Part shown: positions 11,308 through 50,863 of the stretch, piece by piece | How the letters are laid out: each line of letters opens with the position of its first letter | How positions within the stretch are numbered: position 1 is the first letter of the stretch | Sequence record: PX651718.1 | DNA: 52,949 bases | Source of the DNA: a phage | Reading direction: 5' to 3' (one strand) | Notes under the pieces: model-generated | Database searches by the model: none | Told to the model about the DNA's origin: nothing | Seen by the model: the letters and a program-made list of their open reading frames with translations, nothing else | Program-made: the position numbers and the translations under genes

Positions 11308-11493
11308 ATGCGCACAATACAATGTCCTAACTGCCATTATGAAATTGCAGAAGATGATTTCATAACGCAGCAATGTCCTATCTGTGATTCATACATGCCA
11401 CTAAACCGCCTATATTTAAAGGCCGATTCTGGTTTAGGCAGCATCATTCGCATCAATCCCGTGCAAACTCAGCCATTAGTGGATTGTGATTAA
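11308..11493 (+). CDS. small zinc-ribbon protein
   Basis: CPNCHYE ... CPICDS (two CxxC pairs); RBS CGGAG. Confidence 0.5.
   Translation: MRTIQCPNCHYEIAEDDFITQQCPICDSYMPLNRLYLKADSGLGSIIRINPVQTQPLVDCD
11475..11490 (+). promoter_or_regulatory. variant copy of the conserved promoter-like motif (ATTAGTGGATTGTGAT)
   Basis: Matches ATTAGTTGGATGTGAA with small changes; lies just upstream of the terminase start. Confidence 0.3.
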
Positions 11494-11512
11494 AAACAAA
11501 GAGAACGAATCA

Positions 11513-13531
11513 ATGTCAAAGACTGGTGACCTCGGACCGGAGTTTAATGATACAGTAGCCTCGTATCTTGCCAAGCACTACGGTGACGTATTAAAAGTCT
11601 CAAGAGAAAGATTCTGTATTCTATCTTTGCCATTGCTCCGTCGATATATTTCAGAAAATACTGCAATAGTTGACAGCTATGAAGAACAAATTCAAGCAGA
11701 GTTAGAAGGCCAGGGTCTTGAAAACGATGCTGTACTGCGTTCCGTTTTCAGAGCACAACTTGAGCGTCTTCGCTCTGGCGACAAGAAAGACTCGACTGCC
11801 TATGCAGATGAGTTGAAGAAAGGTATTCAAGCAGGTGTTACTGACCGTGTTGCAGGTTCCACATTAGAGGAGCCAAACTCGGAGCATGATAACACCGACG
11901 AACTCGTAGACAAGATTCTGCATGACCCACATAACGTGGACCCAACTGTAATCCCTGCCAAGGTTGCAGAACGTGTTCGCAAAATCTTGATGAAAAGTTT
12001 CGAAGCCTTTGGTAAATGGCAGTTCCATATTCAGATGGGATTTCCATTTCAAGCACAAGACTTTCACGATGTAATATTCAGTGTTGGTCAGAAGGTTGTT
12101 GATGGTGAGATTGACCGCTTAATAGTGACCATTCCTCCACGACACTCTAAGACTCAGCTTATGAGTATTGCATTACCCTTGTATTCATTTTGCCACAATG
12201 AATCAAGCCATAACATTATCACTTCGTATGCAGAAGACGTTGTTCTTGAATCGAGTGGTTACATCCGTGCTGTAATGATGGACCCACTATTCCAACGCAT
12301 ATTCCCGAAGGTGAGAATCGACCCCAACAAACGTTCTCTTGAACGATGGGGTACAACCAAAGCTGGAGTTATGCACGCAGTACCTACTGGTGGTAAGCTA
12401 ACTGGTAAAGGTGCTGGACTTCTTGTTGCAAAGTATTCCGGCTGTTTCGTGGTGGATGACGTTATCAAGCCGAAAGATGCCTACTCTGACACAGTTCGAG
12501 CAGAAATCAACGACCGATTTGATAACACCTTTATGTCACGTCTTGCCAACGATGGTTGCATAACTGATTCGTACGGAAACCAAATTAAATGTGCCCGTAC
12601 ACCAATGGTTATCATCATGCAGCGAGTTCACGACCAAGATTTAGTTGGTTATATACTCCGTGGTGGCTCTTCTGACAAATATCACTATCTCAATATCCCA
12701 GCGATTATTGAGAAAGGCGTTGGGAGTGCCGAATGGTATGATAAGTTAATCAAGAAGCAGAACTACACTCATGCTATTCCCATTCTGTATAATTTGAACA
12801 GGAAGGAAGAGAAGTCTGCATTGTGGCCTTCACGTAAGAGCTTAGAATCTCTGGAGGCAATGAAAGAGTCTAACCCATACACATACAATTCACAGTATGC
12901 TGGCGACCCATCTGCACAAGGCCACGGCCTTATCAAAGAAGATTGGTGGCAAGAGTATGAGCCAGACGTTTTCGACAGAAGTCGCATAGTCAGAAGTTTT
13001 ATTACAGCGGATACGGCATCAACTGCCAAATCCTATTCTGATTATTCGGTCCTTAAGCATTGGGGCGTGACTAAAGAGCGTGATGTTTATTGTTTAGATA
13101 TTATGCTCGGTAAGTTTGAAACTCCAGAACTCAAGACTGCTATCATCGACTTCTGGAACAAATGCAACAAGTTGGACTTGAAATGTGTAGGTTGTATTCC
13201 TCGTGCACTGTACATGGAAGACAAGTCTGCCGGACAATTCTTGAACCAACAATTTATCAGAGATGGGAGTGTCCGAGTTTTGCCATTGCCTCGTGATGGG
13301 ATTAATGGTAATGACAAGGTAACTCGATTCCTTAACGCAATCCCATATTTCTCGCAAAAGAGAATATTCTTCCCTGCTGGTCATGAGCACATCGACCACG
13401 TTAGACGTGAAATACTTGGATTCACTTCTTTGGGCAGTGGTACTGGACACGACGATTGTGTCGATAACGTTTCAGATATGGTTGCAATCGAATTCTCAGG
13501 CCCAAGTGCCAACTACTCCGCATGGATGTAA
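11513..13531 (+). CDS. terminase large subunit
   Basis: ATPase segment IVTIPPRHSKTQ (Walker A-like); VVDDVIKP Walker B-like; position immediately upstream of the portal gene; ATG at 11513 preferred over the track's GTG at 11486. Confidence 0.75.
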   Translation: MSKTGDLGPEFNDTVASYLAKHYGDVLKVSRERFCILSLPLLRRYISENTAIVDSYEEQIQAELEGQGLENDAVLRSVFRAQLERLRSGDKKDSTAYADELKKGIQAGVTDRVAGSTLEEPNSEHDNTDELVDKILHDPHNVDPTVIPAKVAERVRKILMKSFEAFGKWQFHIQMGFPFQAQDFHDVIFSVGQKVVDGEIDRLIVTIPPRHSKTQLMSIALPLYSFCHNESSHNIITSYAEDVVLESSGYIRAVMMDPLFQRIFPKVRIDPNKRSLERWGTTKAGVMHAVPTGGKLTGKGAGLLVAKYSGCFVVDDVIKPKDAYSDTVRAEINDRFDNTFMSRLANDGCITDSYGNQIKCARTPMVIIMQRVHDQDLVGYILRGGSSDKYHYLNIPAIIEKGVGSAEWYDKLIKKQNYTHAIPILYNLNRKEEKSALWPSRKSLESLEAMKESNPYTYNSQYAGDPSAQGHGLIKEDWWQEYEPDVFDRSRIVRSFITADTASTAKSYSDYSVLKHWGVTKERDVYCLDIMLGKFETPELKTAIIDFWNKCNKLDLKCVGCIPRALYMEDKSAGQFLNQQFIRDGSVRVLPLPRDGINGNDKVTRFLNAIPYFSQKRIFFPAGHEHIDHVRREILGFTSLGSGTGHDDCVDNVSDMVAIEFSGPSANYSAWM

Positions 13532-13533
13532 AT

Positions 13534-13746
13534 ATGGCGGTTATCACTCGTTTAGATGCCCGCTCACGCAAGAACAACTCCTTCCAGATTCAAGATTTGG
13601 AAGGAAACATTTTATGTGTGATTGAGGCAGTTTCTACCACAGAGAGCGACTGTGTTAAATTAAAGCACGAGTCAAATCTGCGACTCCACACCTCCGACAA
13701 CATTCAAATTGTTAAGGGTAATGGAACTATTCTAAGGAAGAAATAA
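13534..13746 (+). CDS. hypothetical protein
   Basis: ATG at 13534 with GGATG upstream; in frame with track ORF 13522..13746. Confidence 0.4.
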   Translation: MAVITRLDARSRKNNSFQIQDLEGNILCVIEAVSTTESDCVKLKHESNLRLHTSDNIQIVKGNGTILRKK

Positions 13747-15062
13747 TGACTTCCAAGAAGAAAAACAATCTTTCTGTTAAAGTTGCAGATGGGTTAGAAA
13801 ACCTTGTAACGGGGTTGGGCGGTCAGGCAGATAAGTCCACTTTTAACCAGTGGACTTTCTCAAACAAGAACGCGAACTATCGCGAACTTATGAACCGCTT
13901 CCGTGAGGATTGGGTTGCACAGAAAGTGTGTACCGTCATTCCTCAAGACATGACGCGTAAGTGGCGACATATTGATAGTGAAGAAGGACGCAAAGCGGAT
14001 AAGAAACTTCGTATTCGTAAGCTGTTCCGTGAGGCATATCAATGGGCCAGATTGTATGGTACTTCATTTGTTCTGCTCGACCTGAAAGGTACGGGCAAAC
14101 TTGATACACCATTGCGACTGGATAACTTGAAGACTGGATGTATTAAATCCATGAGAGTTATTGACCGCTCACGCTTATTTGCCGCAGGGACTATGGTTCT
14201 GGACCCTTTGAGTCCTCACTATGGTTTGCCAGAGTATTATACTTTGGCTGGGTATCCCGGCTATATCCACTACACTCGTTTCCTTCGGTTCGAGGGTACT
14301 GAACTACCGCTGTTCGAATTCCAACGCAACATGTGGTATTCCGATTCGGTACTTATTCCACTGCTGAAAACGATTGACCAATTCTACACAACTGCTGCTG
14401 CTGCCGCCAGCCTCGCCCAAGAAGCCACCATTGATGTGGTAACTGTCGAAGGCTTACAATCTCTGCTTACATCACCGGAAGGTGAAGCTGCTGTGATGAA
14501 GCGCTTCAAACTTATGAAGCTGGCAAAGAGTATTTATAACGTCTTAATTCTCGACAACACTGAGAAGTATGACACCAAGTCAATTGCACTATCTGGTGTG
14601 AAAGATTTGATTTGGGAATACTTGAAGATAGTTGCTGCCGCAGTTGGTATTCCGGCTACACGTTTCCTTTCTGCATCTCCAGACGGTATGAATGCTACGG
14701 GCGAATCTGACCTCGTAAACTATATCGACTTGTTGACTGGCTTGCAGACTTCTGTGTTCGACCCTCGTTTAGATGTGGTAGACAAGATTGTCCAAGCGCA
14801 CTTTGGCATCGAAGAGTATAGCTACGAATGGCTAGATATCTTCCCTGAATCCAACGTTGAGAAAGCGAAGCGAGCTAAAGATTTGGCATTTGCTGTTGAC
14901 CTGCTGGTTAACAACGGCACTATTACTACCGAAGTTGCAAACGAAGTCATGTTCCATTCGGGCGTGTTCGGAACTTGTGACCTTGGCAAGCCAAATCCTA
15001 ATCCTCCTAACATCCAAAAGGGTAACGCAAGTGAAGCAAAACCAAAACCTGGTTCAGCTTAA
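13746..15062 (+). CDS. portal protein (putative)
   Basis: 438-aa ORF with RBS AAGGAAG, directly downstream of terminase and upstream of scaffold/capsid genes; assigned by synteny. Confidence 0.6.
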   Translation: MTSKKKNNLSVKVADGLENLVTGLGGQADKSTFNQWTFSNKNANYRELMNRFREDWVAQKVCTVIPQDMTRKWRHIDSEEGRKADKKLRIRKLFREAYQWARLYGTSFVLLDLKGTGKLDTPLRLDNLKTGCIKSMRVIDRSRLFAAGTMVLDPLSPHYGLPEYYTLAGYPGYIHYTRFLRFEGTELPLFEFQRNMWYSDSVLIPLLKTIDQFYTTAAAAASLAQEATIDVVTVEGLQSLLTSPEGEAAVMKRFKLMKLAKSIYNVLILDNTEKYDTKSIALSGVKDLIWEYLKIVAAAVGIPATRFLSASPDGMNATGESDLVNYIDLLTGLQTSVFDPRLDVVDKIVQAHFGIEEYSYEWLDIFPESNVEKAKRAKDLAFAVDLLVNNGTITTEVANEVMFHSGVFGTCDLGKPNPNPPNIQKGNASEAKPKPGSA

Positions 15063-16095
15063 CGACGAAGATACCGTGAATGAAGTAGTTTTGTTGAACG
15101 ACAAGGCTACTTTGACGACCCGTCGTTTACGTGACTCTGGCGAAATGATTGCAGAATGCACCATCGCTCGTACTGGCATCATGCTGTACAAAGCAAAAGA
15201 GCTTGGTGAAATCGCAAAACATCTGGACCCAGAATCTATTTGCCGTGTTCGTACCAAGCCGGAAGTATTATTTGATGAAGCAACCATTGAAGGTTGTCGC
15301 TCAATTCCGGTTACTATCGGCCATCCGAAAAATGATGTTAACATCAAGAACAACAAAGAACTCCAGAAAGGGTTCATCGAAGGGCGTCCAGTTGCAGACG
15401 GCTCTTTCTTGGCTGCATCAATCGTTTTGAATGACGAGCAAGCTATTCGATTAGTTGATTCTGGTGTTGACCAAATCTCCTTGGGCCATAATGCTGAACT
15501 GGCTGTATCAGAAGATGATGAAGCCGACTTCGATAAAGTTCGCATTATCCCTAACCATGCTGCAATTGTTGTTCGTGGTCGTGCTCAGACTACCCGCATT
15601 GGTGACTCTGGTGAAGAGATTGCCATTGTTGATAAGGCAACCTTTGATGTTGTTGAAGCAGAGCGTGATGCAGCGCTTGACAAGATTAGTGCCCTTGAAC
15701 AGAAACTTGCTGATGCGGAAACTGCACGACTATCCGATGAAGCTATTCAGGCTGAGGTAGACAAACGTGTAGTTGCTCGTACAGCATTGCTTGTTGATGT
15801 GGCCCGTCTTGGCGACGAGTTCTCCAACCTCGATTTCTCCGGCAAGACCGATGCAGAAATTAAGTTGGCTGTAGTTAATAAATTGCATGACAAGGATTTC
15901 AGCGATAAGAGCGAAGACTATATCTCCGCCCGTTTCGATGCAGCTCTTGAAGATTGCGATTCCATTACTTTGGGAGATGCCCTGAATCAGTCTATGCAAT
16001 TCTCTGCTAAGAAAGATTCAGAAGCTCGTAAACCTAAAGTTTCTATTTCCGAAGAAGCTAACAAACGTCGTTTAGAACGCTTCAACTCTTTATAA
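15031..16095 (+). CDS. capsid scaffolding / prohead core protein (putative)
   Basis: Coiled-coil-like C-terminal region; sits between portal and capsid genes; GTG at 15031 with AAAAGGG upstream (track ORF begins earlier, at 14857). Confidence 0.45.
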   Translation: MKQNQNLVQLNDEDTVNEVVLLNDKATLTTRRLRDSGEMIAECTIARTGIMLYKAKELGEIAKHLDPESICRVRTKPEVLFDEATIEGCRSIPVTIGHPKNDVNIKNNKELQKGFIEGRPVADGSFLAASIVLNDEQAIRLVDSGVDQISLGHNAELAVSEDDEADFDKVRIIPNHAAIVVRGRAQTTRIGDSGEEIAIVDKATFDVVEAERDAALDKISALEQKLADAETARLSDEAIQAEVDKRVVARTALLVDVARLGDEFSNLDFSGKTDAEIKLAVVNKLHDKDFSDKSEDYISARFDAALEDCDSITLGDALNQSMQFSAKKDSEARKPKVSISEEANKRRLERFNSL

Positions 16096-16104
16096 GGTAA
16101 GACA

Positions 16105-16578
16105 ATGCCAAAGCAAGATTGGTCTATTAATACTGGTGAAGCATATGCAGGTGAACAATATGGCCTGGCTACCACCAACTCCCAGCGCCTGACCTACGTT
16201 GCCGAAGAAGAAATGGCAAACTTTGGTCTGGCTGTTGTTCAAGGCACAGCTTCTAATCAGGTTAAACCTGGTATTGGTTCTGATGGCACTGTTCTGGGCA
16301 TTACTATGCGCCAGATTAACATTGAATCCGCCACCCGTCCTGGTGACGGTACTGTTGCAATCAAAGTTGGCTGGCCTCTGGGTGTTATGCTGTCTGGCCC
16401 AATCATGGTCAAACTGAAAACTGCAATCACCGACAAGAACATTGGCGTATCCACTAAAGGCGAATTTGGCGGTGTTGGTGCTGGGTATACTAAAGCAACC
16501 AACCTGACTGCCCTGCGTTATCCGGCTTCCGCTGGCGATGTTGTCCCGGTCATGATTAACGTAGTCCCAAAGCCGTAA
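16105..16578 (+). CDS. small capsid-associated protein (decoration-like), zero-frame product
   Basis: Track ORF with AAGG RBS; directly upstream of the major capsid gene; 3' end carries a slippery heptamer. Confidence 0.6.
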   Translation: MPKQDWSINTGEAYAGEQYGLATTNSQRLTYVAEEEMANFGLAVVQGTASNQVKPGIGSDGTVLGITMRQINIESATRPGDGTVAIKVGWPLGVMLSGPIMVKLKTAITDKNIGVSTKGEFGGVGAGYTKATNLTALRYPASAGDVVPVMINVVPKP

Positions 16579-16871
16579 CGCCACCTCCAGCCCCTACAGT
16601 ATCTGCTGTAGCTGGAGTTGTAACGGCTGATGCGTCTTCTACTGATGCCACTGTAACTGTAGACAAGCTGTTCAAGTTTGAGAACTCTACAGCAACAGAT
16701 TATAACTTCGCTGTTACACCTCCTGTGACTGGTGTTTCTGTGGCGGCAAACGGCACTGTGACTGTCTTGAATGAGACGACTACAGAGACTTCTGCTACAA
16801 TTAAGGCAACAAACAAAACAACCTCTAGCGTAACTGCGACCAAAGAAATTACCATTACGCCGAAGGCTTAA
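16566..16871 (+). other. programmed -1 frameshift site (CCCAAAG, 16566-16572) and -1 frame extension of the 16105 gene encoding an Ig-like (T/S/V-rich) domain
   Basis: Heptamer C CCA AAG three codons before the zero-frame stop; the -1 frame is closed by TAA at 16557-16559 and then open for 101 codons to TAA at 16869-16871 with no ATG; hairpin CTCCAG...CTACAG/CTGTAG...CTGGAG starts about 12 nt downstream. Confidence 0.65.
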
Positions 16872-16926
16872 GTTGCAATGGCGCAATTAATGGTTGCGCC
16901 TCATCAAACAAAACGGATTAATTTAC

Positions 16927-17934
16927 ATGCCTAAGATGATTAAACTGGCGGACGGTTCTGAATTCGAACTGAACGACGCTATCACCCGTATTCAGGATTC
17001 TGGCACTGTTGTCCTGAATGACGACGATGCAGTATTCTTTCAACGCCAGCTTGAGTTCATTGAAGCTCAAACTTATGACACCCTGTATCCAGAACTGGAA
17101 GCGCGTGCTGCTTTCGGTGTGGACACCACTGGTGGTGCTGGCGTAAACACTCTGACCTACCGTTCCTACAACCATGTAGGTAAAGCTCAGGTAATTAATG
17201 CCCGTGCAACCGACCTGCCGAAGTCCAGCATTTCTGGTAAAGAATACAGCATCCCTGTTAAATCAGTTGGTACTGCATTCGACTACGATATTGACGAAGT
17301 AGCGTCTGCTGCTGTTACTGGCCTCCCGCTGGAAACTCGTAAAGCGAATGCTGCTATTCGTGGTTACGAGCAGTATGTTAACTCTGCTGCATGGTACGGC
17401 GATAAAGCTAACGGCTTTGTTGGCTTCTTCGAAAACCCAGACATTACCAAAGCAACTGTTGCTCAGGGTGCTGGTGGCTCTACCAAGTGGGCCGAGAAGA
17501 CTCCGACCGAAGTTATTGCTGACCTGACTGCTGCTGTGTCTGCAATGTATGCTTCTACTCTGAAAATTATGCGCCCGGATGAAATCTGGATGCCTGTTGA
17601 GCATGAGCAGTACATCTTCAACACTGCACGTTCTGAACAGTCTGATAAGACGATTGGTCAGTTCTTCATTGACAACAACCAGTTCATCAACTCCCGCGAT
17701 AAAATCAAGGGTCTGAACGCAATCAAGGGTCACGGCGATTCTGGCTCCGATTGCTTCGTTGTTGTTTGCCGCAATGCAATGGGCAACCGTACTTTCCGTC
17801 TGCGTGAGCCTCTGCCACTGACCTGGCAACCGGTACAGCTTCATGGTCTGGTTTATGAAGTTCCTGGCCGTGGTCGTTTCGCTGGCTTCCAAGCGATGTA
17901 TCCGGCAGCAATCTCCATCAACTCCGGCATCTGA
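16927..17934 (+). CDS. major capsid protein (putative)
   Basis: About 340-aa ORF downstream of scaffold and small capsid protein; high-expression-like codon usage; tandem stops TGA TAA; followed by a hairpin. Confidence 0.6.
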   Translation: MPKMIKLADGSEFELNDAITRIQDSGTVVLNDDDAVFFQRQLEFIEAQTYDTLYPELEARAAFGVDTTGGAGVNTLTYRSYNHVGKAQVINARATDLPKSSISGKEYSIPVKSVGTAFDYDIDEVASAAVTGLPLETRKANAAIRGYEQYVNSAAWYGDKANGFVGFFENPDITKATVAQGAGGSTKWAEKTPTEVIADLTAAVSAMYASTLKIMRPDEIWMPVEHEQYIFNTARSEQSDKTIGQFFIDNNQFINSRDKIKGLNAIKGHGDSGSDCFVVVCRNAMGNRTFRLREPLPLTWQPVQLHGLVYEVPGRGRFAGFQAMYPAAISINSGI

Positions 17935-21619: not shown

Positions 21620-22078
21620 ATGGCTTGTGAACTTCGTCAACGCGAGTTACAAGCCGACTCTGGTGATGTAGTCTTGGTTGGTACTCGTCAATTGAGTGCC
21701 AGCCAAGCTCTTGACCTACAAGTCGAGCTTGTTCAGAAACTTGGAACTTCAATCTTCCCATTCGTTGAGAATAAATATAACTTTGCAGACATTATTTATT
21801 TAATGCAGCAAGGTGGGACGAGTAACGAAGTAACAGAATTAATTAAACGTGTAGTGTGCATGGCAACCATTGATGGTGTCGAAGTTACTCCACGCACTAT
21901 GCAAATGAAATACAACGGCAACTTGATGCTTATGCACCATGTGTTTGCATTTGTTTTGGAATCGAACTTCCTTGATTTTTTCAAGCAAGGGCTCGAACTC
22001 AACGAACGCAGACGATTGGAGGCGGTGGAAGCATCCAAGATGGCCGAGCAGAAGAATTCGAGTCCGGAAACGATTTAA
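21620..22078 (+). CDS. tail assembly chaperone, zero-frame product (G-like)
   Basis: Position immediately upstream of the tape measure gene; contains a slippery heptamer and an open -1 frame downstream. Confidence 0.6.
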   Translation: MACELRQRELQADSGDVVLVGTRQLSASQALDLQVELVQKLGTSIFPFVENKYNFADIIYLMQQGGTSNEVTELIKRVVCMATIDGVEVTPRTMQMKYNGNLMLMHHVFAFVLESNFLDFFKQGLELNERRRLEAVEASKMAEQKNSSPETI

Positions 22079-22254
22079 CTGCAAAGTTCCCGGAAATAAA
22101 ATACTTCTTGCACCGTCCTGTAATAGAGGACAGTTCACTCTGTTCTCTTAAAGAGTTACAAGATGGGACCTACTCTATTATGGATTTGTTGACCTTCCAC
22201 GCAATACTCGATTTGCGTAACGAATTAAAACCTAAAGAAGAAGACAATGGCTAA
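21976..22254 (+). other. programmed -1 frameshift site (TTTTTTC, 21976-21982) and -1 frame extension (GT-like chaperone product)
   Basis: Heptamer T TTT TTC in the zero frame; the -1 frame has TGA at 21973-21975 then stays open for 92 codons to TAA at 22252-22254, ending where the tape measure gene begins. Confidence 0.6.
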
Positions 22255-25200
22255 TAACATAAAAGATTTGATGAGAATGTCCGAAGCCGAATTGATTGGC
22301 TTAGGCGCTCAATATGGTCTGTCGTTCAATCCAGGTATGCGCAAACGAGATATGGCACAGCAACTTGAATCAAGTGCTGCATCTGGTTGGATGGAAACAA
22401 ATTCGCAGCTCATGGAAGAAACCCATACAGAAGATGATGGCATCTCTTATGGCACTTCCGACATGATTTCAGACTCAGCCCACATTGCACAGATGATTTC
22501 TGGCGCTGGGCTGACTGAAACATTCCATGCTGCAATGAACGGTCCAAGTCACCATGTAGAAGCTATTCATGCCTACATGGAGAAATTAGGTGTATCCGCC
22601 GATGATGTGTGGATGCACATGCCCAAAGCAAACCCGAACAAACCGGAAGGTCATTGGGGAATGCTTAATGCGTACATGCGTGATACGCTGACAGGCCATC
22701 AAGATATAATGCCGGAGCTTCCTGGACATTATACAGGCGACATTATGGGCGAGTACTCCACAAACCGTGGAGATATTGCCAAGTCGTTCGGCTATCTTGC
22801 CCACATGTATGTTGACCGTGAACGATACGACAACCCAGACCGCTATGCACGAGATGTTTATCGTGTAGCCAAACGTTTAGAGTCAGAATTGCCGCAAAAC
22901 TTCCGAGAAGTTGCTGCTGTATCTGCAATGAATGTAGGAAATAAGTCGGGGCCAAAACTTTCATACATGGATTCATTGCCTAAACTTGGCTCTGAATCAA
23001 TTGTTAGTGGTATCCAACACCCTCGACAGCCACTTAACGCATCTGGTTTACCACTTGGCTCATTTGGCAGCGGTATTAATGCTGAATACTCATTATCTGC
23101 ATCCTTATCTGGCTCGCCAGGCTGGTCTGATGTAAGTAGGACTCTGTACCAAGATGTTTCTAGCGTAGTTAAGTCTGCGGCAAAGGTCTATTCTGGTGAT
23201 TCTGAAAGAGGAATGAACGCGTACCGCACTCAATCTTCTGACAGAGATTTGATTCTTGATTCTGCTTCCCGCTATGCAGACATTACAGATGTTCGTTCTG
23301 GGTATGAGAATCTTAAGAAAGATATTGGCGACGACCCTCGCTACTCTGGTGCATCCATCCGTGGTGTTCTTGAGAATGCTCACCAATATAATGAGGCAGA
23401 AGTAAGCAAGACATTTGACCCTGCTGAACGCTTAAGAAATACTGAACCTGCCGAACTAAGTCCTTCAACAGAGTTTATTACGCAACTCGATTCACCAACG
23501 AGTTGGAACTCTGCTCGCGCTCGTCGTGAGAGTATTGCTATATCTAACTTGGACTCTGCTCCACAACCAGCTCCGAAAGAAGGCCCAATCCATTATCACA
23601 ACATGGAACAGGGAACTCAGGAATGGTTGGACTTCCGCAAACAATACGACATTACTGGCTCCACTGTTGGTTCGTTTCTTGGTAACAATGAATACACCCG
23701 ACCTTGGGCTGCAATGATTGATAAAATTGGCCTACAACGCGGAAAGGGGCCAAGTGAATTTACTAAAAGAATGTTCGAAGCAGGTCATCGGACGGAAGAA
23801 ATTGCTCGTAACCGTGTCGCCAAAGAGTTTGGATTCGATATCGAGCAAGCTGGCGCAATAACAAATGACAATTATCCGTCGTTCATGTATTCTCCAGATG
23901 GCCTTATCGGTGATGACGCGATTTGGGAACACAAGAATCCTGAAAGGGCTAAAAAGTTTTCTAATCTCTCTGCTGGCGAGCATAAGGACTATTTCGACCA
24001 AATTCAATTTGGCTTGCTTGTATCTGGCCGTAGTCGTGCACTGTTCTCTCAGACAATCGGAGACAAGACGGTATCTGAGTGGATTGAGAAAGACGAGGGA
24101 TGGTACGAGCGCAACAAAGATAAGATTGATTCTACTATTGGGCGTCTCAATGCTGGTCGAAAGTTTGTTGAAGATAATCCAGACCTACCTAATGATGAAT
24201 TAATCAAGGGTGCTCGTGCTGCAATGACTGGCGATGGCATCTGGAAAGATGTTAAGCAAAGGTCAACTCGTGGATATTCTGCCGCAGCTGGAACACCTGA
24301 TGACCCATTCATAGGCAACCGCACTGATGCTGGAATTGGTGAGGCCACGACTTCTGCCGTAGGCTCTGACAGCACGACTGGCAATGACTCGATGGCAATA
24401 TCTGTCAAGAAAGGTATTCTTGCTGCACAGGAAGAAAACAAACTGCGTGGACAAGATGCCGACTTTGGTGGAAATGATGGTCGTGGTGGCGGTGGTGGCT
24501 TCTGGGATACATTTGATGCCAGCAGTTATGGTATCAGCGGAGGCGGTTCTGGTGGCGGCGGTCGTGGTGGTTGGAGGGTTGGCGGTAGCTTCTCAGATGA
24601 CTTCGGTCGTGCTGGTGGAGCATTGGCTGCTGGCGTAGCTGGTGGCAGCATTGGTTCATTATCCAATGGCGCAATGAATGCCCTCATGATGACTCCTTGG
24701 GGTCGTGTAGCTGGCATGGCTATTGGTGCTGCCCAGATTGGTAATGAAGCTCTGGAAGGTCTGAACGACTTCTACGGCAATTCTTTGGATGCTGGTGTTA
24801 ATAATCCTAACGAATATTCTTCCATGACTCAGGGCATGGAAATGTTGGGACTTAACTCACAACAAGCCAATCGACTCAATCAAACCACACATAGTGCCTA
24901 TAACACCCTCCTAAATGGCGACCCCAGCGGCGCTGTGAACATCGTTCAGGGAACCCGTGGTCTTATCACAATTGGCGACATTCGTGCGGCACAGGGCGAC
25001 CCTGTGGCCCTAGCGCGGATAATGCGTGAGCGTGGTCAGGAACGGGGTTGGAGTCAGGCCCGTATTGCTGGTGCAATGCAAATGGCTGGTCTGGATGGCA
25101 TGGCCCGTGCCTATGACCGCACAGAATACAGCATGGGCGAGGCTGAGGCGAACGTTAAGCGTGGAGCCGACTCAAACTACGCCGAAGGCGTTGCACAGCT

Positions 25201-25918
25201 GGGAATCGCGCAGACGGAGCGTGCTGGGGTATTGCCTGGATACGCCGTTCCGCAAGCTGCAATCTCATACGGCAGCACCTTTATTGAGGCAGGTGGCGAT
25301 GCCGCTAGAACGATGCGTGTGGCCTCCAACGGTACAGCCGATGCAGCACGTAATGTTTATGACTTTATCGCAGGAGAAGAGTCAGGGAACCGCGATTTTA
25401 ACGCAGATGGTTCGGTAGTTACATCGCCAACTGGTGCTAAAGGTCGTATGCAAGTTCTTGATTCAACTTCTCGTGACCCTGGCTTTGGTGTTCGTCCTGC
25501 CAAAGATAACTCACTTGAAGAACGTGCCCGTGTTGGTCGTGACTATTACGATGCAATGCTTAAGCGATATAATGGTGACGCTGAGAAGGCTATGGCGGCG
25601 TACACAGATGGTGCCGGAACTGTTGATGATGCTATCAACAAACATGGGACCGACTGGCTGAACGCTGTTCCACTACAGGCACAGAACCGTGTCAAGAAGT
25701 ACCGCGAATGGGCTTCTCAGGGAGATTCTATTGCAGAAGGTGCAACCGGATTCACCAGAAACGGACTGTCCTATGGTCAGACACAGCCCACCATAGTTAA
25801 CGTTGAAGTCAAAGCTACCGTGAACAACAAACAAGCGTCTGCAACCGTGTCAACTCCGAACGGTCAAACTGTTACCCAAACAATCAACATGGGTAATGGT
25901 GCAATGGAACGCAGATAA
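22247..25918 (+). CDS. tail tape measure protein with lytic transglycosylase (SLT-like) region and Gly-rich low-complexity segment
   Basis: 1223-aa ORF after the chaperone pair; SLT-like motif EESGNRD ... GAKGRMQV; Gly-rich block around residues 740-800. Confidence 0.7.
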   Translation: MANNIKDLMRMSEAELIGLGAQYGLSFNPGMRKRDMAQQLESSAASGWMETNSQLMEETHTEDDGISYGTSDMISDSAHIAQMISGAGLTETFHAAMNGPSHHVEAIHAYMEKLGVSADDVWMHMPKANPNKPEGHWGMLNAYMRDTLTGHQDIMPELPGHYTGDIMGEYSTNRGDIAKSFGYLAHMYVDRERYDNPDRYARDVYRVAKRLESELPQNFREVAAVSAMNVGNKSGPKLSYMDSLPKLGSESIVSGIQHPRQPLNASGLPLGSFGSGINAEYSLSASLSGSPGWSDVSRTLYQDVSSVVKSAAKVYSGDSERGMNAYRTQSSDRDLILDSASRYADITDVRSGYENLKKDIGDDPRYSGASIRGVLENAHQYNEAEVSKTFDPAERLRNTEPAELSPSTEFITQLDSPTSWNSARARRESIAISNLDSAPQPAPKEGPIHYHNMEQGTQEWLDFRKQYDITGSTVGSFLGNNEYTRPWAAMIDKIGLQRGKGPSEFTKRMFEAGHRTEEIARNRVAKEFGFDIEQAGAITNDNYPSFMYSPDGLIGDDAIWEHKNPERAKKFSNLSAGEHKDYFDQIQFGLLVSGRSRALFSQTIGDKTVSEWIEKDEGWYERNKDKIDSTIGRLNAGRKFVEDNPDLPNDELIKGARAAMTGDGIWKDVKQRSTRGYSAAAGTPDDPFIGNRTDAGIGEATTSAVGSDSTTGNDSMAISVKKGILAAQEENKLRGQDADFGGNDGRGGGGGFWDTFDASSYGISGGGSGGGGRGGWRVGGSFSDDFGRAGGALAAGVAGGSIGSLSNGAMNALMMTPWGRVAGMAIGAAQIGNEALEGLNDFYGNSLDAGVNNPNEYSSMTQGMEMLGLNSQQANRLNQTTHSAYNTLLNGDPSGAVNIVQGTRGLITIGDIRAAQGDPVALARIMRERGQERGWSQARIAGAMQMAGLDGMARAYDRTEYSMGEAEANVKRGADSNYAEGVAQLGIAQTERAGVLPGYAVPQAAISYGSTFIEAGGDAARTMRVASNGTADAARNVYDFIAGEESGNRDFNADGSVVTSPTGAKGRMQVLDSTSRDPGFGVRPAKDNSLEERARVGRDYYDAMLKRYNGDAEKAMAAYTDGAGTVDDAINKHGTDWLNAVPLQAQNRVKKYREWASQGDSIAEGATGFTRNGLSYGQTQPTIVNVEVKATVNNKQASATVSTPNGQTVTQTINMGNGAMERR

Positions 25919-50255: not shown

Positions 50256-50576
50256 ATGATTCGCAAGCATTCTGCTAAAGTTTTGACGTTGAGAAATGTA
50301 CTAATGTTCCCTTCAAGTGGGGAAGGAGAGGAAGAAACAATCCACTTCGTTCTCGTTGGTGGGCGTTGGTACTATAACGGCACCAATTCTTTCCACGTAA
50401 GTCTGTCGGAGAAAGATGGATTCTGGAAGCACACCTTTAAGGAGTTGCTTGAAAGCAGTGCCAACTACACCCTTGCCGAAGTTAAGAAATATTTCTACTA
50501 CGGCCCAAACAAGTCCATGCAAATCGCAACTCGCAATTGGACAACAAACCAACCGATTTACGGAGTTCCATTTTGA
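50256..50576 (+). CDS. hypothetical protein
   Basis: Track ORF with GGAGAG RBS. Confidence 0.55.
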   Translation: MIRKHSAKVLTLRNVLMFPSSGEGEEETIHFVLVGGRWYYNGTNSFHVSLSEKDGFWKHTFKELLESSANYTLAEVKKYFYYGPNKSMQIATRNWTTNQPIYGVPF

Positions 50577-50863
50577 ACTTACAAGACAAATCTAAAGAAG
50601 AGTTGATTGAGATTATCCAGAAAGAGCACGAACTCGCTGGCATCACAATTAACTTTGAACTCCAGGCAATGCAAGCTGTTGCTTTGGGTCATGGTCTAAT
50701 GGCTACACTCATTCATGCCAAGAATGTGTTAGGCGTTGACAACGAAAAATACCAAATTCTGGAGAAAGCTGCGCAAGAGCGGATTTCGCAGTGCTTGGTG
50801 ACATTAGTTGATTTGGGAATCGACGCAGAAACTGCGAACAAACGTATCCTACAAGGCCACTAA
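50573..50863 (+). CDS. hypothetical protein (TTG start overlapping the previous stop)
   Basis: TTG at 50573 with GGAG 7 nt upstream; in frame with track ORF 50537..50863. Confidence 0.45.
   Translation: MNLQDKSKEELIEIIQKEHELAGITINFELQAMQAVALGHGLMATLIHAKNVLGVDNEKYQILEKAAQERISQCLVTLVDLGIDAETANKRILQGH

Follow-up and report, generated by a model that had tools for sequence, protein, structure and literature searches.

A programmed -1 ribosomal frameshift very probably appends an immunoglobulin (Ig)-like domain to a fraction of a capsid cement protein encoded in the phage DNA of record PX651718.1, the whole of which (52,949 nucleotides, nt) was analysed and is hereafter called the window. The carrier is the 0-frame product of the gene at 16105..16578 (+ strand), a predicted cement (decoration) protein of 157 amino acids (aa) and 16.3 kDa, and the slip is placed at the heptamer C_CCA_AAG (16566..16572, + strand) close to the 3' end of this gene. 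The frameshift is supported by the conservation of the heptamer, by selection acting on the -1 frame and by the predicted structure of the encoded protein. This comparative, selection and structure-prediction evidence also bears out the central claim of the original prediction, namely that of a -1 programmed frameshift appending an Ig-like domain.

The codons of the 0 frame at the slip site read GTC CCA AAG CCG TAA, and the phase of the heptamer is one that lets tRNA-Pro re-pair with CCC instead of CCA and tRNA-Lys with AAA instead of AAG. The 0-frame stop (TAA, 16576..16578, + strand) is located one codon past the heptamer. The -1 frame is closed by another TAA two codons 5' of the slip site (16557..16559, + strand) and then remains free of stops for 101 codons, counted from 16566, up to the TAA at 16869-71; it contains no ATG, and translation from its first GTG (16725) would give only 48 aa, that from a CTG at 16668 only 67 aa. 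The phase and coordinates of the heptamer near the stop of the gene, as well as the closed, then open and ATG-free -1 frame, had already been described in the original prediction and were confirmed here, and the translation given for the frame matches as well. The extension starts with a Pro-rich linker, AVTPPPAP (16572..16595, + strand), followed by a predicted Ig-like beta-sandwich domain of the BIG2 type (16596..16871, + strand, stop included).

In the scheme that we infer, which covers the occurrence and efficiency of the shift, the joint assembly of both forms and an adhesive function, most ribosomes would terminate at the TAA at 16576 and release the 157-aa form, the predicted C-terminal peptide of which is YPASAGDVVPVMINVVPKP. 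A minority would slip back by one base, the peptidyl-tRNA-Pro from CCA to CCC and the aminoacyl-tRNA-Lys from AAG to AAA, and decoding would go on with GCC GTA ACG in the -1 frame. The predicted trans-frame product has 255 aa (26.1 kDa) and would consist of the cement domain, the Pro-rich linker and one BIG2-type Ig-like domain, the predicted peptides of the -1 frame including AVTPPPAPTVSAVAGVVTADASSTDATVTVDK and YPASAGDVVPVMINVVPK. This long form would co-assemble with the short one, with the result that Ig-like domains are displayed in sub-stoichiometric numbers on the capsid, where they presumably make weak contacts with glycans of the cell surface or of mucus. Co-assembly and glycan adhesion are presumed here by analogy with 10B of T3 and T7, with Hoc and with the BAM model, in which bacteriophages adhere to mucus.

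The window region is 99% identical to Escherichia phage Ecp_YSF and 83-98% identical to phiEcoM-GJ1, ST32, flopper, Mangalitsa and the Yersinia PYps phages, a lineage classified as Chaseviridae, Cleopatravirinae, Carltongylesvirus; the window is a phiEcoM-GJ1-like myophage of E. coli belonging to Carltongylesvirus. Relatives of the cement protein were gathered from IMG/VR (26 loci) and from metagenomes (13 loci). Every relative with a protein identity of 58-99% carries CCCAAAG (CCCAAAA in one) in the same phase, two to three codons before a TAA or TAG, and CCCAAA is invariant in the 17 aligned loci of this identity range. The codons immediately 5' of the heptamer vary (GTAGTC, GTATCC, GTCGGC, GCAGGC and GCCGCC, encoding Val-Val, Val-Ser, Val-Gly, Ala-Gly and Ala-Ala), and the base before CCA is always C whatever the amino acid; the constraint is therefore on the nucleotide and not on the amino acid. 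In all heptamer-bearing relatives the 0-frame stop (TAA or TAG) follows zero to one codons past the heptamer, a position that the linker's Val codon likewise imposes, and in most relatives the -1 frame is closed two to four codons upstream of the slip site.

Downstream of the heptamer the -1 frame is open for another 92-110 codons in all loci that carry it, with the exception of one metagenomic locus (L036), and for 191 codons in the flopper-type phages; it is uninterrupted by stops in more than 20 loci. Relatives devoid of the heptamer and the open -1 frame had been named beforehand as an argument against frameshifting; both features are present in the relatives of 58-99% identity, the frame of L036 being 11 codons long. 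The ten relatives without a heptamer (L021-L027, 27-40% identity; L041-L043, 54-61%) have no such -1 extension, some of them carrying short in-frame tails instead. Among these, L023 has the one long -1 open reading frame (ORF), 376 codons in length, which appears to be the next gene overlapping in that frame. The heptamer and the -1 ORF are hence present or absent together, which supports the frameshift. A variant of the site is found in L020, where G_GCA_AAG_TAA, containing the tetramer A_AAG, is followed by a -1 ORF of 110 codons; A_AAG is the best -1 tetramer in E. coli (PMC4066793).

Selection on the -1 frame was examined in nine loci with the domain type of the window, giving 36 pairwise comparisons. 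The ratio of nonsynonymous to synonymous changes (dN/dS) ranges from 0.08 to 0.28 and the differences are mostly at third positions, for instance 16, 17 and 58 at codon positions 1, 2 and 3, respectively. These sequence comparisons indicate that the -1 frame is a true coding sequence under strong purifying selection. It is hardly credible that the -1 ORF is a decaying, unexpressed remnant of an Ig domain once encoded in frame, with the heptamer kept only as Pro-Lys codons, although this would fit the truncated slot of L036, in which the heptamer persists, and the relatives at 27-61% identity, which do without any extension. The dN/dS values hold across lineages up to about 70% divergent at synonymous sites, which is incompatible with a pseudogene. 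A remnant is further contradicted by the lack of stops in the more than 20 loci, by the invariant C before CCA, and by the duplication of the domain (flopper, L032) and its exchange for other Ig types, the frame relative to the slip site being maintained.

Several GenBank records instead treat the -1 ORF as a small gene of its own, an interpretation according to which a GTG, TTG or CTG start would give rise to a free Ig-like protein. Such coding sequence (CDS) features are carried by ST32 (gp56), BSBP01 ('Ig protein'), Mangalitsa (Mangalitsa_059), flopper (flopper_48) and Ecp_YSF, and the protein database holds ORF calls of 70-90 aa for the region. The GenBank features found in Mangalitsa, Ecp_YSF, ST32, BSBP01 and flopper measure 43, 48, 70, 90 and 142 aa, with labels including 'Ig domain containing protein' and 'hypothetical protein', and the RefSeq record of phiEcoM-GJ1 lists no feature under the match. 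A search for homologues of the extension only retrieved the same locus, called as ORFs of 70-90 aa. An independent gene is nevertheless improbable, as the called starts fall at six alignment positions (six different starts among 11 database ORFs), with neither a conserved start nor a conserved Shine-Dalgarno (SD) sequence. In the publication on ST32, the SD column for ORF56 holds 'TGTAACTGTG', which is a non-SD sequence (PMC6266442). The -1 frame of the window has no ATG, and a start at its first GTG would leave out roughly half of the sandwich, which is predicted to have nine strands. Moreover, both the constraint and the conservation of the protein (PKAVTPPPAP...) begin at the slip site, upstream of every candidate start codon, and a free Ig domain would lack a part known to anchor it to the virion.

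A frameshift product thus accounts for the region better than the separate small ORFs, and the annotation of the whole phage family is to be corrected, as there are likely two products of one gene. None of the GenBank records examined for the family contains a joined CDS; they show a 157-aa 'hypothetical' or 'virion structural' protein together with either an arbitrary small ORF or an empty gap of 350 nt. The family includes several phages under study as therapeutic or biocontrol agents (E. coli, Yersinia, Erwinia, Pantoea, Pectobacterium).

A fusion of the two frames could also be made by another recoding event at the same place, either slippage of the RNA polymerase during transcription or termination followed by reinitiation at the TAA. 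The extension would look identical in genome comparisons and the 0-frame stop is only one codon from the heptamer, yet such an origin is very unlikely. Known transcriptional slippage needs runs of about 8-9 A or T, and the only homopolymer runs here are CCC and AAA; for reinitiation, there is no start-like codon near the 0-frame stop. The conserved element is rather a phased X_XXY_YYZ, of the type measured as the most shift-prone on E. coli ribosomes. In a comparison of 64 heptamers in E. coli, C_CC.A_AA.G ranked first in efficiency, with 54% when combined with the IS3 pseudoknot (PMC4066793; also PMC5009743), and it belongs to the motifs that give more than 0.1% frameshifting without any stimulator in this host (PMC4066793).

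The likelihood of finding such a site by chance was evaluated by scanning all stop-to-stop ORFs of the window that reach 100 codons or more, 112 in number, for an in-frame X_XXY_YYZ inside a -1 overlap of at least 40 codons. Four heptamers qualify, one being the C_CCA_AAG site and another the T_TTT_TTC of the tail assembly chaperone gene. By a rough estimate, the chance of an XXXAAAG within the last five codons combined with 97 stop-free codons is below 1e-3 genome-wide, and the conservation in relatives places the site far beyond chance. A second CCCAAAG, at 22622 in a gene encoding 1223 aa, was rejected, since its phase is CCC_AAA and it is therefore no slip site. An in-frame C_CCA_AAC is located at 50504 in the ORF 50256..50576, which overlaps a -1 frame ORF with a TTG start (50537..50863); this heptamer is absent from the set reported to work efficiently in E. 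coli, and 50256-50863 probably represents just overlapping genes.

Several results weigh against a frameshift that delivers an Ig-like domain. In the metagenome contig OGVK01000246.1 (L036, about 1360-1420), the cement protein is 68% identical and both C_CCA_AAG and the linker (PKAVTPPAPAP) are kept, but the -1 ORF stops after 11 codons. Either the Ig cassette is naturally truncated here or the contig is misassembled, and the locus implies that the heptamer can persist without the domain. Neither virion proteomics nor gels of this phage group turned up in the literature search. The Pfam search of the window extension gave nothing significant, only a sub-threshold match to Rpf1_C (E 0.025). Also, no in-frame fusion of a cement protein with an Ig domain was found among 75 family representatives. 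The 87 close cement homologues are all about 157 aa long, and the only long protein among the 75 profile matches (P0164, 248 aa) was rejected as an in-frame fusion, its additional length being an internal insertion without an Ig signal. Finally, no conserved stimulator was identified: no SD-like element is seen upstream of the slip site, and heptamer-bearing relatives outside the genus have no structure comparable to that predicted downstream of it in the window.

The latter structure is a three-tier stem-loop (16573..16625, + strand; -18.7 kcal/mol, z = -3.8), and none of 200 shuffled sequences folds as well. Its main stem (16585-16617) starts 12 nt past the slip site, the reference spacing for a stimulator being a hairpin or pseudoknot about 5-9 nt downstream, or else an SD-like sequence upstream. 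Among 11 genus-level relatives, the inner stem contains one pair with compensatory changes in four, and more than half have a disrupted outer stem. The hairpin is thus a possible candidate for a frameshift stimulator, genus-specific at best. Of what had been proposed beforehand, the fold at 16585-16617, about 12 nt downstream, is indeed predicted, but its conservation does not extend past the genus and it can be regarded only as a candidate stimulator.

The identity of the carrier rests on its family membership and on its predicted fold. The 157-aa product matches the Pfam family Phage_cement (PF22758; E 2.5e-17, 63.8 bits against a cutoff of 27) over residues 4-152, and belongs to PHROG 563 (virion structural protein). 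The cement part and the extension were modelled separately with AlphaFold2 (AF2). The model of the cement part has a predicted local distance difference test (pLDDT) score of 80, and its top Foldseek match is the cement protein of Pam3 (8hdt_G; E 2.5e-6, TM-score 0.63), further matches being the decoration proteins of T1, HFTV1, FCWL1, TW1 and XM1. E217 gp24, a member of the same family, forms beta-tulip trimers located on the capsid's threefold and quasi-threefold axes (PMC10329688). Based on the Pfam match and on the fold matches, including that to Pam3, as well as on the family of E217 gp24, the carrier is predicted to be a beta-tulip capsid cement/decoration protein, presumably trimeric. 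The 'small capsid protein' initially proposed as the carrier is accordingly to be replaced by a cement/decoration protein and not a shell protein, as judged from PF22758 and the fold of Pam3 gp6. The major capsid protein is encoded by the next gene (16927..17934), so the frameshifted gene is not the major capsid gene.

The base domain fold is common to the 157-aa protein, Pam3 gp6 and E217 gp24 (PF22758). Foldseek also pairs the model with the head fibre of phi29 (gp8.5), a match limited to its N-terminal base. E217 gp24 (211 aa) and Pam3 gp6 have no Ig domain, in contrast to the gene of the window with its Ig extension in the -1 frame, and we know of no frameshifting in Pam3 gp6, E217 gp24 or phi29 gp8.5. 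A sequence search of the PDB with the 255-aa product gave no match.

The model of the extension, for which AF2 was run on an alignment of 12 sequences, has a pLDDT of 91 and shows nine beta strands, the first ten residues (the linker) having a pLDDT of 75. Compared to the PDB, the best Foldseek match is pb6, the tail tube protein of T5, in its C-terminal Ig-like domain (E 1e-4), and others are the BIG2 domain of phi29 gp8, Rib and invasin. Matches in BFVD are phage 'Bacterial Ig-like domain' and BIG2 proteins with 28-35% identity, along with large capsid and tail proteins, the overall range being 25-35%, and the extension also matches PHROG 13745 ('Ig domain containing protein'; E 8e-8). The model, together with matches of relatives to Ig_2, suggests that the extension is a BIG2-type Ig-like beta-sandwich. 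The Ig-like nature claimed in the original prediction is consistent with this predicted fold and with the Ig_2 match of a relative, although the search of the extension against Pfam Big_2 that had been proposed gave no significant match.

The linker, PK(A/V)VTPP, is conserved even where the domain downstream is unrelated. In four loci (L008, L009, L013 and L014) the slot is occupied by a domain of the Ig_2/Ig_3/I-set type (Ig_2 in L008 with 28.2 bits against a cutoff of 27), and the PHROG families matched by these extensions, with E values down to 1e-23, bear the annotation Hoc-like head decoration or major tail protein. The extensions of L015 and L020 are weakly Ig_3-like, and those of L010 and L016 represent a third, weakly Big_2-like type (Big_2 E 0.047 in L016). 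In an Erwinia/Pantoea lineage (L018 and L019) the base is 58% identical and the extension 72-73%, while in L008 the base is 71% identical and the extension unrelated (19%). Such discordant histories of base and extension point to the pattern of mobile Ig cassettes as described for phages (Fraser 2006, as summarised in PMC5009743). In flopper (L007, 2962-3549), L032 and P0010 the cassette is tandemly duplicated by an insertion of 282 nt, the second copy being joined by a copy of the linker PPAPTVSAV, so that the extension has two domains.

It is possible, though we consider it rather doubtful, that the slip site and the Pro-rich linker constitute a fixed 'docking port' in the Chaseviridae, into which unrelated Ig cassettes, BIG2-like or I-set-like and single or in tandem, are swapped by recombination and for which frameshifting is obligatory. 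The obligation would arise if three Ig domains per cement trimer were incompatible with assembly of the cement lattice, which would explain the lack of in-frame cement-Ig fusions among the 75 representatives. Such a port, if real, would be a natural and tunable low-copy display site. The slot is in any case an obvious low-copy display site for engineering, and the same port with different Ig cassettes in zero, one or two copies offers a natural series for the study of domain movement and binding.

The addition of Ig-like domains to phage structural proteins by frameshifting is an established class (Fraser et al. 2006, as summarised in the accessible text of PMC5009743), and the examples named there include major capsid and tail proteins of T3, Lactobacillus A2 and Listeria A118, A500 and PSA. 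As in the window, the domains of this class are C-terminal and delivered by a programmed frameshift, with apparent non-homologous recombination between phages, and different Ig families occur at equivalent positions, as they do in the slot of the Chaseviridae. The literature search, for which many subscription papers were out of reach, retrieved no description of a frameshift-added Ig domain on a PF22758 cement protein or in Chaseviridae. The present case is apparently new, unreported and unannotated within a known class, with a cement protein as its carrier and conservation across a phage family. It adds the cement protein to the carriers of frameshift-delivered Ig-like domains, a solid finding of use for annotation and phage engineering and no surprise to the specialist.

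The capsid proteins 10A/10B of T7 and T3 likewise involve a -1 frameshift near the stop of a head structural gene, and the minor, longer product is incorporated together with the major one. Their carrier is the HK97-fold major capsid protein, unlike the predicted beta-tulip cement protein of the window, and the slip site of T7 is U-rich, unlike C_CCA_AAG. According to the accessible text of Atkins 2016 (PMC5009743), the 10B extension is Ig-like in T3 and not in T7. The parallel to T7 10A/10B drawn in the original prediction therefore holds as regards a frameshift near the stop of a head gene, but T3 10B, with its Ig-like extension, is closer, and the carrier is not a major capsid protein. Surface Ig-like domains on the head or tail are also found in T4 Hoc and in the C-terminal domain of T5 pb6, similar to the predicted extension. 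In these two proteins they are encoded in frame and present on every copy, in contrast to the extension in the -1 frame of the window.

Tail assembly chaperones of the lambda G/GT type also depend on a -1 shift at a conserved, phased heptamer and are made as short and long forms in a fixed ratio. The long form of the chaperone is an assembly factor absent from virions, unlike the long form of the cement protein, which is a predicted component of the virion surface. The window has a chaperone gene of its own (21620..22078; phrog_11820, E 3e-58) with an in-frame T_TTT_TTC at 21976-21982. Its -1 frame is closed by TGA at 21973-75, opens exactly at T_TTT_TTC and continues to 22254, 58 codons beyond the 0-frame stop, where it adjoins the tape-measure-like gene of 1223 aa at 22247. 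The region 21620-22254 contains a -1 frameshift of the classical G/GT type, which makes it the second recoding site of the window.

The cement gene is situated among other head genes, in the order large terminase (11486-13531), portal (13746-15062, Phage_portal_3), DUF2213 protease/scaffold (about 15070-16095), cement protein, an uncalled gap of 348 nt and the major capsid protein (16927..17934; PF09950, E 1.5e-48), followed 3' by head-tail genes and then the DUF3383 sheath. Between the stop of the extension and the start of the major capsid gene, a further stem-loop (GGCGCAAUU-AAU-GGUUGCGCC) is found at 16880-16900. It is kept in relatives with compensatory changes in its arms (GGTGCGAC/GTCGCACC in L012 and AGCGTAAC/GTTGCGCT in L017), has no U-tract and was not picked up by terminator calling, and may be an element for mRNA processing or stability ahead of the capsid gene. 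An Rfam search of 16400-17000 gave no match. A GenBank record named 'Staphylococcus phage Pel53' (PP952070.1; stated host Staphylococcus hyicus) shows 88.8% identity across the full length of the 1-kb query, and its host label looks doubtful, given this match to the region of an E. coli Carltongylesvirus. The protein of 1223 aa (22247-25918), annotated as 'virion structural protein' and encoded at the tape-measure position, matches PHROGs of RecE-like exonucleases at residues of about 440-630 and PHROGs of transglycosylases/endolysins at about 1025-1150.

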